Positions 13,801 to 64,000 of a stretch of 64,000 nucleotides of DNA are shown piece after piece (the stretch's first letter is position 1; every line of letters begins with the position of its first letter). A program made the translations under genes and the position numbers. The notes beneath the pieces were generated by a model that saw nothing but the letters and a program-made list of their open reading frames with translations, searched no databases and had not been told where the DNA came from. This stretch comes from Eledone cirrhosa (lineage: Eukaryota). Location: assembly GCA_964016885.1 (NCBI GenBank), contig OZ024742.1, positions 86,428,001 through 86,492,000 of the forward strand. Reading direction: 5' to 3'.

Positions 13801-13854
<54 letters not shown>

Positions 13855-14472
13855 TATGAATTAGAACCCTGTAACCATTAAGCTCTAAGTATAAATTACG
13901 AATAAATACTGAGCCGATTAACAATATATAGTAAGAAACACAGTAAACCGTGTGTCTAAAATTACAAGGGTTGAAAAACATCATATGCTATATATTGTTA
14001 ATCGGCTCAGTATTTATTTGTACTTTATACTTAGAGCTTAATGGTTACAGGGTTCTAATTCATATATATATATATATTTCGGCTCTCTTACAGGATGAGC
14101 TATTAAGCTGCGCGTGTTGGACTGTTATTTCTGTTCAACACGCGCTTACCACGTTTGGCTGGCGAAGCACGAGGTGATGAATTCATCTTTCTGTGTGAAA
14201 GTTGGCAAATAGTGTTTGTGGCATTTAATCGCAATCTCTCACTGATGAAGCCCAGGATTATATGTTACAAACACACTCAGGGCGAAACAGATTAGGGATA
14301 ATCTGTCCGAGAGATATAATGGTTATTGAGGCGGTTTGTATTATTTGATAATATATTTTTATGTTAATTTCGTCATTCTGTCTGTTTCTTGGTTAAATAC
14401 TTCAAGCATATGTGGTTTTTCAACCCTTGTAATTTTAGACACACGGTTTACTGTGTTTCTTACTATATATTG

Positions 14473-14473
<1 letters not shown>
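13855..14473. mobile_element. Non-autonomous HHR-bearing (retrozyme/pLTR-like) element with inverted partial copies
   Basis: 13921-13989 is the reverse complement of 14405-14473, and 13855-13931 is the reverse complement of 13988-14065. The pieces are bounded by (TA)n and contain the HHR at 14234. Confidence 0.65.
14234..14315 (+). ncRNA. Type I hammerhead ribozyme in a non-coding element
   Basis: ATCTCTC-A-CTGATGA-A-GCCC...GGGC-GAAA-CAGATTA-ggga-TAATCTG-TC-C-GAGAGAT, with an A.C mismatch at the first stem I pair. Confidence 0.85.
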
Positions 14474-14521
<48 letters not shown>

Positions 14522-14666
14522 TAAAATAACAGATTAAAGTTTAAGCAAAGAATCGCTGCTTTCACCCTTAACGGGATCTTCTGAAACTCTACGGTTCTTA
14601 TATATTTGATATATATTTATCCTTATTGATCCCTCTTTGGATTTTAGTCTTCAAATTTATTATTAT

Positions 14667-14716
<50 letters not shown>

Positions 14717-14861
14717 ATAATAATAAATTTGAAGACTAAAATCCAAAGAGGGATCAATAAGGATAAATATATATCAAATATATAAGAACCGTAGAGTTTC
14801 AGAAGATCCCGTTAAGGGTGAAAGCAGCGATTCTTTGCTTAAACTTTAATCTGTTATTTTA

Positions 14862-14912
<51 letters not shown>

Positions 14913-14931
14913 CAATATATAGTAAGAAACA
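14454..14931. repeat. Long palindrome (~240-bp arms) centred on (TA)n, abutting the 5' end of Naiad A
   Basis: TGTTTCTTAC...TTATTACT(AT)n AGTAATAA...GTAAGAAACA; the arms read as reverse complements. Confidence 0.9.
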
Positions 14932-14932
14932 T

Positions 14933-15964
14933 GTTGGCTTAGACCCCGGATACTTGCCCCCCTTTTCCGACCGCTCCCACTATTCTCTGTGCCCTCTATA
15001 TTTCTTAGTGGCACTTATGCCTTATTTTTTCGTTTCAGTATTTCTTGCTTCGCTTTTCTTCTGGGCGGGGTGGATTCTGAACTTATTTCTCCGTATTCTA
15101 CCTTTATTTCGTACGAACTTTCATGTAGCTTGTTTTAGATCTTTTAGAGTTAGCATTAGTATATATTTTTCCCGGGACTCAGAATTATTATGTCGTACAA
15201 GTTCACTTTGCTGCACTGGGTCGTTGCTGGCCCGGGATGGAAACCTTTATTGTTTATTTCGTGGTAGTCTCTTTAGTATTTTGGCCCCTTTTGTTGACCA
15301 GTCACCGTATCATTTACGTACTTATACCTCTTAAAAGGGTCCTTGCCTAATTCGTCCCACCTAGTTCTTTTACTTATTTCCTTATTTATTTATTTATTTA
15401 TTTATTTACTTCTTTCTTTCTTTCTTTATTTTTTTCTTTATTTTATTCTCGCCTAACAATAGCCTGACACCTAGGTCGTAGAATTTAATTTTTTCTTTAC
15501 ACTTATTTGCTTTTCTTCACTCTCAGTATTTTTTCTTTCCTATTTTTACCCCCCATTGTTCTACCTACCGTTCCGACTTCCTCCCCCTCCCCCTCCCCTG
15601 TATCTTCTTTGACCTCATGCCCAGCTGTAGCTGGCACTACCAACGCTTGATTGGGTCTACTCCACCCCCTCCCCTCTTTCTCCTACTGGCAGGTTTAGCC
15701 ACCATCTCCCCTACTAATTTGCAACCACAGAATTACTACTGATTTTTGACAATCACTTTGACCATATATGGAATTACCCCTTGAGAAGATCGGCTATTTA
15801 AATACCAGGATAAATGTTCATTTAGTCCAGAATTAGCCGTCGAAACGGCTTGAGCTCAGCTGTCGGGGTCTTACTGGTTCCTATTACCCACTCTACTACC
15901 TCAAGTATTGAGTACTTTGGTGCGTTATGGTCCACCTGGTTCCTTACCACATTTCCTTCGTTAT
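14933..15964 (+). repeat. 5' pseudo-LTR (5'-truncated) of Naiad A
   Basis: Matches 18474-19505. Identical spurious ORFs at 14954 and 18495 confirm the identity. Confidence 0.93.
15776..15869 (+). ncRNA. Type I hammerhead ribozyme, U3-A8 core variant
   Basis: Stem I ACCCC/GGGGT; core TTGAGAA; stem II GA(T)CGGCTA/TAGCCGTC; GAAA; stem III CGGCT/AGCTG with palindromic TGAGCTCA loop region; GUC cleavage after 15864. Confidence 0.8.
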
Positions 15965-16054
15965 CTAGCTCCTACTCCCGTAGTAGAGCACTTTCCGACC
16001 CTACCACGCCGTATCCAGACTTTTCCGCTAAGCTCAATTCATTTCACCCGCACC

Positions 16055-18207
16055 ATGCGAAAACACAACATTGACTTCTCTACCAAGAACATCCCAATCC
16101 CACCGAAAAAACTTTACCTTCGGATGCTCACGCAAAAAATTGATCTATTTGCGAAAAGACTTAGATGGAGAACTTTTTTCTATGACAGATATTGCGACAA
16201 CCAAGACTTCGGCACCAAGGAGAGATTCGGATTTATTACCTACAAATCTCCGCCCCTGAACCCCTTGCTCGCACCCTTCGAGAATGACCTCTTCCAACTG
16301 GTCAAGAACATTAAATTTAAACCCAGACACAACCGATTCCTACAAAAACTCCGTAGCAACTTAACAGAGTATGATAACACAAATGACATCATGGTGCATT
16401 CGGATAAAACTGGGAACCTATACTTTGTCAACCCTGACAGATACCACACACTGATCAGGAGCAGCCTAAACTCCACCTATAAAAAGGCCAACCACTCTTG
16501 CATCGAGGACATAAATCGAGATGGACAACAAATCACCTCCAGCCTCGGGGTCGCCGACCGCACGGAACCTCTAGACCCACGGACACCATACTTCACACTG
16601 AAGGACCATAAATCCGATTTTGACCGTAAACCCTCCATCAGGCTTATTAACCCAACGAAGTCCGACATAGGGAGAATCAGCAAAAAAATCCTAGACCGCG
16701 TGATACCAAAAGTCAAGCAACACACCCGACTTAGCCTATGGATCAACACCCAGGAAGTAATCTCCTGGTTCAGCAATATGGAGGATAAACGAGAAACTAA
16801 ATTCATACAGTTCGACATAGAGAGCTACTATGCTTCAATCACCTTACCGCTACTTACTGCCGCCTTGGACTTCGCCGAAACACTCGTGCCCATCACCGAC
16901 CAGGAAAGAAAAATCATCCTCCACGCCAGGAAGACAGTCTTACTCTTTGACGACTCTAAATGGATAAAAAGAGCTCCCGACTCACCCTTCGACGTCAGCA
17001 TGGGCGCCACGGATTCGGCGGAGGTCACTGATCTTATAGGATTATTCCTAATAGCCAAACTCACTGATATGTTTCCTGCATTCGGTGGTGGATTGTACCG
17101 TGATGATGGGCTCCTTACCCTTAAAGGGTACAACCCCAGTAGTACAGATCGGGTCCGGAAACAATTAATCAGATTCTTCCGCGACTGGGGATTTAAAATA
17201 ACCCTACAAACGTCCCTGACCCGAGTAAACTTCCTGGACGTAACCCTCGACCTCGAAAACGACCTGTACTACCCATACAGGAAACCTAATGACAATCTGC
17301 ACTACATCCACCGCCGATCAAACCATCCTAGGAACATCACAAACAACCTGGTCAAAAACATCTCCCTCCGCATATCCCGTTTGTCAGCTAATGAGCGGAT
17401 ATTCGATGAACATGCGCCTTATTACAACCAGGCCCTCAAGCGGAGTGGTTTCCGGGAGGAAATATCCTACTGTCCAGATCCCATTAGCGGAACCAGCAGG
17501 AGACACCGCCGCTCACGCAATGTAACATGGTTCAATCCTCCCCACAACGCAGAGGTGACTACTCCCATCGGGAAACTATTCTTTAGGCTCATTGAAACAC
17601 ACTTCCCATTACAACACCGCTACCACAACATAATTAACAAAAAACCATCAAACTCTCTTACAGCACTACACCAAACTTCGCACAAAACATCGTCTCCTCT
17701 AACAACAAAAAACTCAACCCCGATGGCAGAAATAACCTAAATAGCAGTGGAGAACCGACCAGGAGGTGTAACTGCCCGGATAGATCTATTTGCCCACTCG
17801 ACAATAGATGCAGAGACCGTAATGTGATCTACCAGTGCAACGTGAGGACGGATACCTCCAACAAAGCCTATATAGGACTTACCGCATGTGACTTCAAGAC
17901 CCGGCTATACCAACATAGACATACCTTCCGAAACCCGGCCCGGCGTCACGCCACTACACTTTCGGGCCACATATGGGACCTCAAGGACAACAACATCACC
18001 TATGATCTCACTTGGAGATTACTGTCCAGAGCCAATTCTTACACGGGAGGACGCCGTCCGTGCAATTTATGCTCGGAGGAAACTTTACAAATGCTGTTTT
18101 CGACGGACCAACTCCTAAACAAGAAAGATGAACTGGTTACTGCATGTAAACATAGATTGCGTAGGACTTACCTCGCCCTCAAACCCCATAATGACCCGGG
18201 GGGGTAG
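16055..18207 (+). CDS. PLE polyprotein: reverse transcriptase + CCHH-flanked GIY-YIG endonuclease, one frameshift near 17640
   Basis: N-terminal MRKHNIDFSTKNIPIP; RT motifs IRLINPTKSDIG, FIQFDIESYY, FDVSMGATDSAE, GLYRDDGL, VNFLDVTLDL. After the shift the frame reads CNC..CPL..C, YIGLT..FKTR..H, CNLC..E, LNK.DELV..C.H, matching Naiad architecture. Confidence 0.9.
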
Positions 18208-18473: not shown

Positions 18474-19501
18474 GTTGGCTTAGACCCCGGATACTTGCCC
18501 CCCTTTTCCGACCGCTCCCACTATTCTCTGTGCCCTCTATATTTCTTAGTGGCACTTATGCCTTATTTTTTCGTTTCAGTATTTCTTGCTTCGCTTTTCT
18601 TCTGGGCGGGGTGGATTCTGAACTTATTTCTCCGTATTCTACCTTTATTTCGTACGAACTTTCATGTAGCTTGTTTTAGATCTTTTAGAGTTAGCATTAG
18701 TATATATTTTTCCCGGGACTCAGAATTATTATGTCGTACAAGTTCACTTTGCTGCACTGGGTCGTTGCTGGCCCGGGATGGAAACCTTTATTGTTTATTT
18801 CGTGGTAGTCTCTTTAGTATTTTGGCCCCTTTTGTTGACCAGTCACCGTATCATTTACGTACTTATACCTCTTAAAAGGGTCCTTGCCTAATTCGTCCCA
18901 CCTAGTTCTTTTACTTATTTCCTTATTTATTTATTTATTTATTTATTTACTTCTTTCTTTCTTTCTTTATTTTTTTCTTTATTTTATTCTCGCCTAACAA
19001 TAGCCTGACACCTAGGTCGTAGAATTTAATTTTTTCTTTACACTTATTTGCTTTTCTTCACTCTCAGTATTTTTTCTTTCCTATTTTTACCCCCCATTGT
19101 TCTACCTACCGTTCCGACTTCCTCCCCCTCCCCCTCCCCTGTATCTTCTTTGACCTCATGCCCAGCTGTAGCTGGCACTACCAACGCTTGATTGGGTCTA
19201 CTCCACCCCCTCCCCTCTTTCTCCTACTGGCAGGTTTAGCCACCATCTCCCCTACTAATTTGCAACCACAGAATTACTACTGATTTTTGACAATCACTTT
19301 GACCATATATGGAATTACCCCTTGAGAAGATCGGCTATTTAAATACCAGGATAAATGTTCATTTAGTCCAGAATTAGCCGTCGAAACGGCTTGAGCTCAG
19401 CTGTCGGGGTCTTACTGGTTCCTATTACCCACTCTACTACCTCAAGTATTGAGTACTTTGGTGCGTTATGGTCCACCTGGTTCCTTACCACATTTCCTTC
19501 G

Positions 19502-19505
<4 letters not shown>
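18474..19505 (+). repeat. 3' pseudo-LTR of Naiad A
   Basis: Direct repeat of 14933-15964, terminating in (TA)n. Confidence 0.93.
19317..19410 (+). ncRNA. Type I hammerhead ribozyme, U3-A8 variant (3' pLTR copy)
   Basis: Same sequence as 15776-15869; predicted cleavage after 19405. Confidence 0.8.
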
Positions 19506-19551
<46 letters not shown>

Positions 19552-19822
19552 ATACACATATATATATATATATATATAGTAGAACACAGGAGGGTTTTAT
19601 CCATAGTAGAGCACTCAGTCTATGGGACGAGTTGGGTATAAGTAACTGTTGTGTAACTACTTCTATATGCATATATATATTAAATTGTTAAGCAATATGC
19701 AACGATTATGTCAAAGAATTAGTTTTACAGTAGATTGGAAGCACTCAACGGTTAAAAAAAATGTCTGAAGTTATTAATATTAAAATATAAGTATTAGTAA
19801 AATAGATGTTCTTTTGATCAAT

Positions 19823-19880
19823 TACATTTTATTATACGTATTTCGGATGTACCAAAGTACGTCCTCATCAGACAAAATAT
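19823..19880 (-). ncRNA. Minimal type I hammerhead ribozyme
   Basis: Minus strand: ATATTTTGT-CTGATGA-GGACGTAC-tttg-GTACATCC-GAAA-TACGTA-TA-ATAAAATGT; palindromic stem III; AUA cleavage triplet. Confidence 0.85.
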
Positions 19881-20409
19881 AATGATACATGACATACCCT
19901 GAGATGTTAAATGGTTAAGATTTAATCAAGCTAGTGATTAACCGAGGAGAACATTTTACTTATATCCTATTTATGAGAAAATGCGAAAACGTAATAAATT
20001 CATTAGAGAATGTGGGAGTAATAAAAAATGTTGCATACTGTAACTGTTCTAAAATGTTAAAGTGTATGATACTACGACATATCTAGGAAAACGTCTCATG
20101 AATCATAACAGCCAGTGATTTCCACTGGAACAAGATTTATAAAGAGGGAAAAATAAAGTGTGTGTGTGTGTGTGGAGGGGGTGATATATGCAGAAGGAGG
20201 TTTTTTCGAAAGTTAAACGGTTAGATTTGAAAATATTTAATTTATAATATTAGGGTGAAGACTCCAGATTTCAGGATTATTTGCTGGTTATATAAATATT
20301 ATTTATATAAATTCGATAATCGTGTTATCATTTCTAAATTTCTAAATGTTGAGAGTAACGTTTAAAGGATTTAGCTGGCACATAAAAAAATGAAATATTA
20401 TACTGTTGA

Positions 20410-22555
20410 TTGGTTAAGGTAAATAAAGATGCTGAAGGAAAAACGAACAACAATCAGTTTGAATCTTTGTTTAAATCAAGAAAAAATCCTCCATACAACA
20501 AACTTCTGGGGGTTTTTGAAACAGAAATGCTCGGCATAATTAAAAAAATTAAATTTAGGAAAAACCCATATATATATCACCAATACCTCAGATCTCTAAC
20601 AGATAAAATCACTGAAATAAAAAAATGTTAAATCTGACAAAACTAATATTTCATATGGGATAGGCAAAGATGAATATAACGACCTGATTCTGAAAGAACT
20701 TAGGAAAAATTACAAAAAAGCCCCGGCTGATGATCTTACTGAAATTAATGAAGAAGCCTATAAATTAATTACCAATCTAGGAATACAAGGAAGAACTGAG
20801 CCATTCTGACCTAGACAGCCGAGGATTAACCTGAAGGATCAAAAAATAAACTTTAAGGAAGAGATGCCAGTTAGACTGATTGCTCCATCGAAATCGGATA
20901 TAGGAGTAATCAGTAAAAACATCATAAATTGAATATTACCCACTCTTCAATTGAGATCTAGTTTGAGCTTATGGAAAGATACAAATGAGGCCATTGAATG
21001 GTACACGAATATTGAAGATAAAAAAAACTATAAATTCATTCAGATGGATAATACTAGCTACTATTCTTCTATAACAGCTAAACTTCTAAATAAGGCCGTC
21101 TCATATTCTTATAAGCACACTGATCTAACCACAAATGAAATAGATATAATGTTAACAGCCAGAAGAACTCTCATTAACTTCAATAACGAATTTTGGACAC
21201 GCTCAGATAGAGATAGAAACTTTGATATCACTATGGGGGCACCTGATTCCGCGCAAATCACATATCTTCTGGGAATTTTCATATTAAACATGATAAATAG
21301 AAAACTGTCGGAGATTGCCGGTGGTTTATATAGGGACGACATTTTATTTACGGTGGTCAAACACAGCAATATAGAATTAAATAGAGTTAAGAAAAGTATA
21401 ATAGAATTCTTTAAAACGTACGACCTTAAATTAGAAGTAGAAAATGGTACCAACATAGTTAATTTCCTTGACGTTACTTTAACTTAAACACTGGCTTCTA
21501 TTACCCTTTTCATAAGCGTAATGAAAACTTAAATTATGTTAGTAACTATTCAAATCACCCTAGATCTGTAAAAAAAAGTTATAGTAAATAGTGTGCAAAG
21601 ACGTATTAATAAAATATCAGCTAATAAAATATATTTGATAAAAATGTTGAATACTACAACAACGCGTTAAAAAGAGCAGGATATATGAATAATATAGAAT
21701 ATGTAGATAATACAAATCCAAGTATTATTCCTAATAATAATAATAAAAACAATAACATATGTAAGAGTGACTCTAATAATTATAACTGAAACACACATAC
21801 GCTAAATAAATCGAAAATACAAACTAGATCTAAACCACTCATATGGTTTGCACCCCCTGCTTCGGTCGCAGTTAAAACAGCAATTGCAAAACTATTCTTT
21901 AAAGCTCTTGACACCTCTTCCCCTACTCAACATAAATACCATTCCATTTTTAATAGACATACCATTAAATTCGCAAATTGTACAACCAGTAACATGGCCC
22001 CCCAAAACGCCAAATTAAACGCCAAAATCCTAAAACCAAACCAACATAATGATCATAATAATAGAGTTAACATTAATGATACTAAACCAAAATGTAATTG
22101 TAGAAATAGAACTAATTGCCCTTTGCAAAATAATTGTGTAGATAGTAATTTGGTTTATAAATGCACCGTAAAATCTGATAAACAAACATACAATTACATT
22201 GGATCATCCTCGTCCACATTCAAAGCTCGATTTGCGAACCATAAATGCTCATTCTCGAACTCTAAGAGGATATCATCCACATCTTTATCACAGATCATAG
22301 GGTCTTTAAAAGAGAAGAATTTAGAATACTCCATTCTTTGGACAAAACTTCGGAACTATGGAATTTACCGCAACTTTAGTGTTATCACATAACTGCCCGC
22401 TCTGTACAATGGAGACCCTGTTGATTATTAATAATTATGAGACCCTAATTAACAAAAAAAGTGAATTATTCTCTAGTTGCCTCCATAAAGCTACGTCGAC
22501 TTTTTTAGCCTCACATGAAACGAGAAAGAAAGAAACAATTATACCAAACCAATAA
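20410..22555 (+). pseudogene. Degenerate Naiad-type PLE ORF, family C
   Basis: FKSRKNPP, VRLIAPSKSDIG, FIQMD, FDITMGAPDSA, GLYRDD, VNFLDVTL, CNC..CPL..C, YIGS..FKAR..H and CPLC..E, with many stops and frameshifts. Confidence 0.88.
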
Positions 22556-22656: not shown

Positions 22657-22920
<264 letters not shown>

Positions 22921-26242: not shown

Positions 26243-26279
26243 GTTATGGTTCACCTGGTTCCTTATCACACCACCTTCG

Positions 26280-26283
<4 letters not shown>
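26243..26283 (+). mobile_element. ~40-bp 3'-terminal fragment of Naiad A in a (TA)n tract
   Basis: GTTATGGTTCACCTGGTTCCTTATCACACCACCTTCGTTA(TA)n matches the pLTR terminus at ~19465-19505. Confidence 0.8.
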
Positions 26284-52272: not shown

Positions 52273-52725
<453 letters not shown>

Positions 52726-52987: not shown

Positions 52988-53040
52988 AGGAATATTGGAC
53001 TAGTTTCGATGTTATTACATCTCATCAGCAATATATACCT
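52988..53040 (-). ncRNA. Minimal type I hammerhead ribozyme
   Basis: ATATTG-CTGATGA-GATGT-aata-ACATC-GAAA-CTAG-TC-CAATAT, extended by the flanking inverted repeat ATTCTCCAGAGA(A)GCC. Confidence 0.92.
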
Positions 53041-54197: not shown

Positions 54198-54240
54198 ACG
54201 ATGTACTAGTTTCAAGCTTGTTAGCTATCATCAGCACCGT
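54198..54240 (-). ncRNA. Minimal type I hammerhead ribozyme (R1)
   Basis: ACGGTG-CTGATGA-TAGCTAACAAGCTT-GAAA-CTAG-TA-CATCGT; GUA triplet. Confidence 0.88.
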
Positions 54241-54333: not shown

Positions 54334-55434
54334 TCAGTCGGCCAGGCGTACCGAAAACGATAAGTTGTAATATAATGAAACGAAATTTCATTTCTCAACT
54401 TTTTGTACGGCACTTACTTAAAAGTAAGTATGTATACAGTAAGTATGTATACAGTTTAAAGGGCTTTGCAAATTGAAAATAGCGATAGCTAATTCATCCG
54501 CGTGATATGTAGCAACGAAAGAACGTACTAGTGTATAAGAACTGTATATATATATAGTAATAATATATATATGTAACCCATTAGCAACCTAGCATCACGT
54601 TTATTCTCATATTTACACATATCTTTTGCCTCGCTGTGACCCGTCTATTTCGTTCTTACTGCTTCCTCTTTCTCTGTACCTTTATCCTCTCTAGCAGTCA
54701 CTCTCTCTGTTAGCCTATTCCTCACCCTTCACTCACTCACTCTCTGTTACTACCTCTCCTCCTCCTCCTTCTTCCCGTTTGACAAGTGCGTAATTCTTTT
54801 CTTTCGCACCCTTGGTCATGCAGGTCGCTTTTTTTCTCTCTCGTCTACGATTTCACAGAACTTACGTTCATCGAATTCACAGACTAGATCCCTTCTTCCT
54901 CCCATTAGACCTGTACAGAATTCCTTCCTTGCTCACATTCCAACCAGGTTTGATGGTCTTTATTCTCTCTCGTTCACGATTTCACCGAACTTATATTCAT
55001 GGAAATTTGGGACTTGACTCCTTCTTCCTCACTTTTCGTTGCTTCGCCATCTTTGTTTGTTTACACTCTCGTGTCCCCTTTATTTACGTGTCCCAACGAC
55101 TTTTCTTAGCCGTTGCTCGCACCAAGCGGAGGTATATGGTCTTTAAAGCGATGAAATACCAATGATGGTTGGGAGATCACTGATGAAGGACTAACTTTTT
55201 CATATATATATATATATAGGTATATATGAATGTATATATATTGTATTTTGCACTACATTGTATGCTTAATTAAAAGCATTTTGATGACCTTACGCTATTG
55301 TTTTTAAGTAGTGACTATTTCACTTACTTCTTTTGTCAACAAACGAAGGAAGATAAGCTGACAGATCGCGGTTTCATACTGCGGGTATTCCTCAGAGCTT
55401 AGCTTGTGTAAATTATGAATGCTGGATTCTTATA

Positions 55435-63196: not shown

Positions 63197-64000
63197 TCAT
63201 TATTGTGGTGAGTAACCTAGGTGTAATAAATCTTTAATGAGAAACAATCTTAATATTTGGAGGCTAAGTACCAGGTTGATAACAAATAAAATAAATTAAT
63301 ACAGTATATTTTCCTCGGGTGTTCTAAATCAGACATAATGAAAAGATTTGGTCATTGGACTAACTTATAAGCTGGTGTATTGTTAACTTGAGAAAGCACT
63401 TTTTAATAAATAATATTAGATGAATTAATAATATTCAATAAACCCATATATATATATATACATATATATAAATATATACATATATATGTATATATAGATA
63501 TATAAAGATCTGAATTAAGAGTATTCCGCAGTTCACTGTAATAATAATAATAGTATTAGCTCAAAGAAGAATAGAGAAATTTTTTCTGAGCTCAAAAGCA
63601 AATATCTTACACAAAGAGAAGTGTGTTACACAGTGAGATGTGTGTAAAGAATTATTACAAGTGTGTTTTACCGTTACTGTATAGAAAACAATATCTACAG
63701 GTTTAGCAATTAAATAGAAAAAATCTAAGTCAGAATCAAATCTCTGAATTAGAGTTTTAAATTACCAACCTTATAACTATAAGTTTGCTGATACGAATCT
63801 CGCTTCGTTTCACCACTGATATGTGCAGTATAACAGTTCGCAGGATCCTCAGTCAGAAAATGTGGACACTGTTTACGACACATCTAACCTCATGGATAGA
63901 GAGAAAGCTAATATACACGCTGCCCAGAGTAGGGCGAAATCACGTGTTATTTGCATCAAATAACGGCTCTCATGGATTGGGGAAAAAGCTAGAGAGGGCA

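Follow-up and report, generated by a model that had tools for sequence, protein, structure and literature searches.

Host element and clade

The window, by which is meant the whole 64,000-nt stretch of Eledone cirrhosa DNA analysed, contains an element in which a reverse transcriptase (RT) part is followed by a linker and an endonuclease (EN) part, with two identical pLTRs in the same orientation (Table 1). Its unit is 3541 nt long owing to the long 3′ UTR, Hydra elements generally being under 3 kb with one ORF, and its hammerhead motif stands 1115 nt past the stop codon as against 47–521 nt in relatives. The two protein parts are separated by a frame break at an A run near 17638–17645, where contigs from three runs and a sister copy have one extra base. 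With that base present in other copies, the break belongs to this copy alone or to its assembly, and the reading as a programmed −1 frameshift was dropped.

Judged by its motifs and the order of its domains, the host is a Hydra-clade Penelope-like element, with RT before EN, RW[KR], DKT and CxCX5C; its protein is also visibly alignable with the published Hydra-1_Obim. RWR occupies the place of the RWK of most relatives, and the EN part has CxCX5C, CxxC and CxH at its residues 44, 142 and 170. CCHH cysteines are expected as a close pair within the GIY-YIG domain, and with no CX2-5CxxC and no other CxxC in the window's EN part there is, as in Hydra elements, no CCHH motif. RT is N-terminal in all 19 relatives aligned, and 2578 of 8000 scored candidate proteins are related to the window protein at E 1e-20, the best being 53% identical. 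Neither protein part matched a Pfam family, exact words of the family had no match in the metagenome or viral contigs searched, and protein scans of viral contigs gave no relative of the window element. That the element targets (TA)n is apparent from its flanking sequence and from loose ends in four runs.

The Hydra clade as published has a C-terminal EN, RWK, DKT, CxCX5C, terminal CxxC and CxH, and (TA)n targets (Craig et al. 2021, PMC8557442). The window element is like it in domain order, motifs, targets and the placing of a hammerhead near the 3′ end, and is alignable with Hydra-1_Obim, but differs in the ribozyme core, as all 26 Hydra rows of File S2 of that article are C3-G8. A first-pass annotation had labelled the element Naiad, and the label does not survive: Naiads, as characterized in the same article, have an N-terminal EN, DKA and no canonical hammerheads, whereas here RT precedes EN, the motif is DKT and a complete hammerhead stands in both pLTRs, relatives having canonical ones. 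What is shared with the Naiad clade is a Penelope-like nature, pLTRs and (TA)n targets. A non-LTR retrozyme was also rejected; retrozymes are defined as short non-coding tandem units (bioRxiv 10.64898/2026.07.22.740005), and the unit here encodes RT and EN.

Table 1. Features of the element, its hammerheads and its relatives (positions in the window unless a locus is named)
Feature	Position	Strand	Remarks
Upstream pLTR	14933..15964	+	5′-truncated copy of element 3′ end; 1032 nt, exact identity with 18474–19505
Downstream pLTR / 1.1-kb 3′ UTR	18474..19505	+	ends in (AT)n; identical to upstream pLTR, offset 3541
Reverse transcriptase part of ORF	16055..17640	+	RWR aa 37, DKT aa 117, YRDD aa 348–351
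Linker (CxCX5C) and C-terminal GIY-YIG-type endonuclease	17638..18207	+	frame differs from that of RT here
Type I hammerhead, copy 1	15776..15869	+	U3-A8 core; predicted cut after C15864
Type I hammerhead, copy 2	19317..19410	+	identical to copy 1; predicted cut after C19405
Stem I, copy 1	ACCCC 15776–80 / GGGGT 15865–69	+	5 bp
Predicted stem I extension	15770–75 with 15876–81 (15770..15881)	+	MFE; 6-nt bulge 15870–75
Core, copy 1	TTGAGAA 15781–87	+	U3 = 15781, A8 = 15786
Stem II, copy 1	15788–96 / 15834–41	+	8 bp, one bulged U; closes 37-nt insert
GAA + A15.1 (GAAA), copy 1	15842–45	+	
Stem III, copy 1	15845–50 / 15858–63	+	6 bp including one G-U; encloses the palindrome
Loop III palindrome TGAGCTCA	15851..15858	+	permits 19-nt helix III between two copies
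C17, copy 1	15864	+	
Competing hairpin hiding GAAA box	15835..15850	+	stem II 3′ strand pairs with stem III 5′ strand (predicted)
Downstream motif 1, ACTC-N16-GAGT-ACT	15890..15916	+	A-U for G-C swap; 5 nt past minor 3′ end 15884
Downstream motif 2, GCTC-N14-GAGC-ACT	15968..15992	+	3 nt past major 3′ end 15964; only after upstream pLTR
Sister copy, body	52273–50519	−	88.6% identical
Sister copy, inverted 3′ end	52330..52555	+	core C3 with A8; GAAA and stem III gone
U3-A8 minimal hammerheads in Hydra-clade metagenome elements	L035:2395–2435; L060:2098–2143		separate RT branches

The U3-A8 hammerhead motif

Each of the identical pLTRs carries one type I hammerhead with a U3-A8 core. Three helices of 5, 8 and 6 bp ring the core, helix I being open-ended; U4 G5 A6 N7 A9, G12 A13 A14, A15.1-U16.1 and H17 are all present, and positions 3 and 8 are Watson–Crick paired as U15781-A15786. 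The motif had been proposed at 15776–15869, with three stems, GAAA and a TTGAGAA core, together with an identical second copy at 19317–19410, 3541 nt away; all the letters are in place and the pLTRs match exactly over 1032 nt. Taking C15780 as C3 instead would leave no G at position 5, and that register was discarded.

It had also been foreseen that standard CUGANGA searches would fail here, and a CUGANGA descriptor did indeed miss both copies in a scan of the 64-kb window. A UUGANAA descriptor has two matches in that window, the two pLTR hammerheads, and no equally good match in any of 30 windows of that length simulated with its dinucleotide composition. Rfam gave no match at gathering threshold over the whole window and no hammerhead family at E ≤ 10 around 15600–16100 and 19650–20150; as a canonical-core (C3-G8) motif at 19871 is likewise missed by Rfam, the U3-A8 swap is not established as the cause of the Rfam miss. 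That the motif is a chance resemblance or an assembly artefact is scarcely credible. The energy of its predicted fold, no better than that of shuffles (z 0.25), would suit such a view, as would the silence of Rfam and of a custom model described below, but the simulated windows yielded nothing comparable, the motif sits between the end of the ORF and the downstream motifs as the clade's hammerheads do, and independent sequencing runs carry the same letters.

Cores of this sort are already known from Penelope-like elements. U3-A8 was reported for the Cercyon pLTR hammerheads of Schistosoma, with about 1,300 matches that had escaped the standard descriptor, together with a model in which the RNA is cleaved, circularised and reverse-transcribed over more than one unit length (Cervera and De la Pena 2014, PMC4209133); the same article gives low cleavage in vitro for metazoan pLTR hammerheads. 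With Cercyon of Schistosoma mansoni the window element has in common type I hammerheads in both pLTRs about 3 kb apart, U3-A8, a long helix II and a short helix I, as well as the descriptor miss and the proposed cut-and-circle role; it differs in its 6-bp helix III, predicted to be stable in the monomer, in the 37-nt insert of helix II and in its Hydra-clade host. The same 3-8 covariation is found, outside this element family, in several natural hammerheads for which in vitro activity is cited (Perreault et al. 2011, PMC3088659). A literature search with little coverage of subscription journals found no published report of U3-A8 in the Hydra clade: both the variant, in Penelope pLTRs, and the cut-and-circle model have been published, and the present case is, to the extent of that search, new for the Hydra clade.

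Positions 3 and 8 in relatives

The relatives were scanned with positions 3 and 8 left free at 92 loci, 77 of them metagenomic (the best 80 of 569 confirmed being kept) and 15 from genome bins. Seven loci had no endonuclease end; among the 94 endonuclease ends, 54 have a motif within 700 nt downstream, 20 are too near a contig end and 20 gave no match, several of the last showing, by eye, a C3-G8 motif with a broken stem. Fifty-two of the 54 motifs are C3-G8 and two, at L035 and L060, are U3-A8, a tally from which three plus-strand matches with other 3/8 letters and one more U-A match were left out as not being the first motif in the position window. Reduced to 47 distinct motifs, the count is 45 C3-G8, two U3-A8 and none unpaired (Fisher p 9e-4, kinship ignored). 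The strict U3-A8 pattern has two matches in the 54 real regions and none in 10,800 shuffles. Across the clade, then, the swap is compensatory as judged from these aligned letters, which upholds what had been claimed for it from the window.

In a quick RT tree of 46 rows, where the window's three nearest proteins are rows without an assigned ribozyme, the window element, L035 and L060 stand apart, which requires three changes, at least two of them forced by well-supported branches; on this tree U3-A8 seems to have arisen more than once in the Hydra clade. Bacterial genome bins made from animal-associated samples include contigs with Hydra-clade elements (L078–L092), which are most likely host DNA carried over.

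Closer to home, near-identical copies in three other organisms retain the core. Contigs spanning it in organisms B, C and D have 1, 2 and 0 letters different (D with one gap), those in B and C being accounted for, among the differences listed, by 15816 and 15861. In each of the four runs the majority letter at 15861 would make the stem III wobble a G-C pair, and both pLTRs share letters that deviate from the family majority.

The sister copy tells a less tidy tale. GAAA and stem III are gone, 23 nt having been deleted between the words that stems II and III share, there are further changes in stems I and II with one stem II pair broken, and the core is C3 with A8. Its ORF divergence, 17, 7 and 43 changes at codon positions 1, 2 and 3, points to purifying selection, and 30 letters upstream recur in organism B, for which reasons C3-A8 could be a subfamily trait instead of decay; the motif being broken, C3-A8 may also be drift. 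Stem I of the sister could pair with a one-letter shift of register.

Might the window hammerhead itself be vestigial or nearly inactive, G8 having changed to A in the lineage with position 3 drifting thereafter, to U here and C in the sister? This we regard as unlikely. The state of the sister copy, with C3-A8, a broken stem II pair and GAAA and stem III deleted, would be in keeping with it, as would the atypical lengths of the window motif (region II 54 nt vs 10–25 in 47 relatives, region III 19 nt vs 8–10) and the context-dependent misfolding predicted for it. However, all other core letters and the three helices are intact, the core is kept in the copies of three other organisms, the majority letters at the stem III wobble give G-C, the 47 relatives have no 3-8 mismatch, and the sister motif is physically broken and so free to drift.

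Long helices and the predicted dimer and swap folds

The MFE fold of 15760–15885 has the hammerhead topology, with P about 0.46. In wider sequence contexts this is less secure: the active fold has P 0.01–0.04 per stem in one, and stems I and III are lost in another. Stems II and III are made of the same words, which allows a swap fold that hides GAAA. At −27.3 kcal/mol, against −27.7 for the hammerhead fold, the swap fold has P about 0.2, and in some prefixes and one wider context it is the predicted dominant fold.

The motif has two traits of minimal Penelope hammerheads, a palindromic loop III allowing a dimer and a location in both pLTRs. Nevertheless, the minimal, dimer-dependent Penelope hammerhead was rejected as a description of it, because helix III is predicted to form in the monomer (hairpin −4.9 kcal/mol; a stable monomer hairpin occurs in none of 47 relatives) and a covariance model built from the 47 relative motifs, which matched other motifs in the window, did not match the U3-A8 hammerhead at E ≤ 5; it is thus not a typical minimal motif. 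Even so, the suggestion that the loop III palindrome could allow dimeric folding agrees with prediction, a cofold of two copies at −63.3 vs −46.8 kcal/mol for two monomers favouring the dimer, with −26.3 kcal/mol for the palindrome-mediated duplex.

The 6-nt bulge of the modelled stem I extension is a possible partner for a loop II contact: by eye, CCAG at 15806–15809 in loop II and CUGG at 15874–15877 at the stem I bulge give a 4-bp match that might pair, a comparison of two sequences singling out no one register. Reads with loose ends from other subfamilies retain the loop II CCAG.

Downstream motifs and 3′ ends

Past the hammerhead, each of two positions at which copies of the family end is followed within a few nucleotides by a motif of the form GCTC/GAGC-ACT. 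Ends at 15964 are represented by 302, 4, 3 and 4 contigs in four runs and ends at 15884 by 84 and 3 contigs in two (302 and 84 being those of run X1), both positions being accurate to ±2 owing to the AT target. Relatives have the same arrangement. GCTC-N8-20-GAGC followed by ACT-like letters is found after 34 of the 43 distinct relative hammerheads that have at least 150 clean bases downstream (63 are distinct in all), with two copies in 19; controls gave 0 upstream and 0.9% of shuffles. Measured from the cut, the first motif lies at +15 to +61 and the second at +101 to +125. Fourteen of the 24 relative copies that finish in (TA)n have their end at +31 to +54 and no motif ahead of it; in eight the end is at +96 to +118, preceded by one motif in seven of them, and the last two end elsewhere; the relevant motifs beside the two clusters of ends lie at +36 to +61 and +101 to +125. 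The printed Hydra-1_Ajap consensus has two such motifs and starts 2 nt ahead of one of them.

From these placings the twin motif likely marks reverse-transcription starts in Hydra-clade elements. It is nearly invariant (50 of 53 identical) and its folding support is modest (z −0.48 and −1.65), so that it may be read as sequence, not hairpin. Among the articles listed by a literature search, none appears to describe it. A similar word pair occurs near the start of the printed Chlamys-9_cRei consensus.

The 3′ end of the element seems common to many more, possibly non-autonomous, elements. At 15766–16003 the summed contig depth in run X1 is about 1.7–2.0 million, vs 5,000–130,000 elsewhere in the element, and loose ends from other families in that stretch retain the GAGCTC loop III palindrome. 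At 26243–26283 of the window, simple repeats flank 41 nt that consist solely of the extreme 3′ tail of the element, an abortive insertion that began at a 15964-type end.

Proposed cleavage, circularisation and copying

What might such a hammerhead do for the element? The reading towards which we incline, tentatively and with a little less than even confidence, is that it self-cuts after C15864 and C19405 and that the 3541-nt unit RNA so released circularises and serves as template. By analogy with other hammerheads for which this is reported, U3-A8 would keep the core active; the 6-bp helix III would allow folding as a monomer, with a palindrome-mediated dimer as the alternative, and the near-isoenergetic swap fold would slow cutting. 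The released unit would likely close into a circle, and reverse transcription, primed on nicked (TA)n DNA, would start internally, 5′ of one or other downstream motif, 20 or 100 nt past the cut. The insertion, 4573 nt long, includes the cut site two times over. From those starts a linear cut unit would yield no more than 20–100 nt of cDNA, so such an insertion would have come via a religated circle, here read 1.3 turns, or via uncut tandem RNA.

The second of these routes belongs to a rival that is possible though doubtful, according to which U3-A8 cuts slowly, or only with element protein, off the copying path, with uncut tandem transcripts as the template; cleavage would then set the mRNA 5′ end (190 nt before the ATG), trim readthrough or limit the element. 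Uncut tandem RNA explains the structure of the insertion equally well, both downstream motifs follow the ORF in several relative contigs so that tandem arrangements exist or are assembled, the swap fold and dimer option would slow cutting, and Naiads, as described, spread without canonical hammerheads. It has a precedent in Anolis, whose Poseidon element PAc (Frangieh et al. 2024, PMC11167929) is the one Penelope element tested in vitro: there the hammerhead is reported to cut only with protein, ribozyme mutants did not change insertion in vitro, the RNA served as template mainly in its uncut form, and none of the RNA-seq reads had an end at the cut site. In that ribozyme single changes at positions 3 or 8 abolish cutting and a double change partly restores it.

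PAc has also two internal reverse-transcription starts that match genomic ends, and is like the window element in having a hammerhead upstream of two starts whose spacing makes a ‘tail’, the two 3′ ends here being 80 nt apart. It is unlike it in belonging to another clade, in its C3-G8 core and in having its starts in an AC-rich stem-loop inside the ORF, with no twin motif described in the parts of the article consulted. What speaks against uncut tandem transcripts as template is the place of motif 2: a donor built as this copy is has it past the upstream pLTR and not past the downstream one, and no linear transcript of such a donor could restore the common 15964 end, which outnumbers the other by 302 to 84 in run X1. 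The objection lapses, however, if fully tandem donors are maintained by another route.

To return to the self-cut and circularised unit as template, a more elaborate form of it would have the twin signal, clade-wide, setting the two starts, with only the religated unit RNA templating a full copy, and the minimal ribozyme rebuilt as a monomer-competent U3-A8 switch that the stem II/III words toggle off in the circle; taken as a whole this is improbable.

Taken by itself the U3-A8 core, a published variant, makes little difference: the list is extended to the Hydra clade, and CUGANGA descriptors undercount Penelope ribozymes. What sets the element apart is less the U3-A8 pair than its long helices, with their predicted swap, and the signal downstream of them. 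As a young and apparently intact-ended copy, the window element is a handy test case for the role of hammerheads in Penelope elements, with predictions of a cut at 15865, a 3541-nt circle and starts just before 15890 and 15968.

Other repeats in the window

Further hammerhead-like motifs with a canonical C3-G8 core are at 19828–19876, 52993–53033, 54199–54239, 55355–55400 and 63787–63857 on the minus strand and at 14237–14312 on the plus strand, and come most probably from other Penelope-like insertions. Four degenerate Hydra-like RT/EN remnants lie at 20470–22510 (+), 49003–46674 (−), 53805–53100 (−) and 62070–61488 (−). Long, almost perfect inverted repeats with (AT)n at their centre or flanks, of a kind typical of inverted truncated insertions, occupy 14464–14919, 22657–22920 and 13842–14077.
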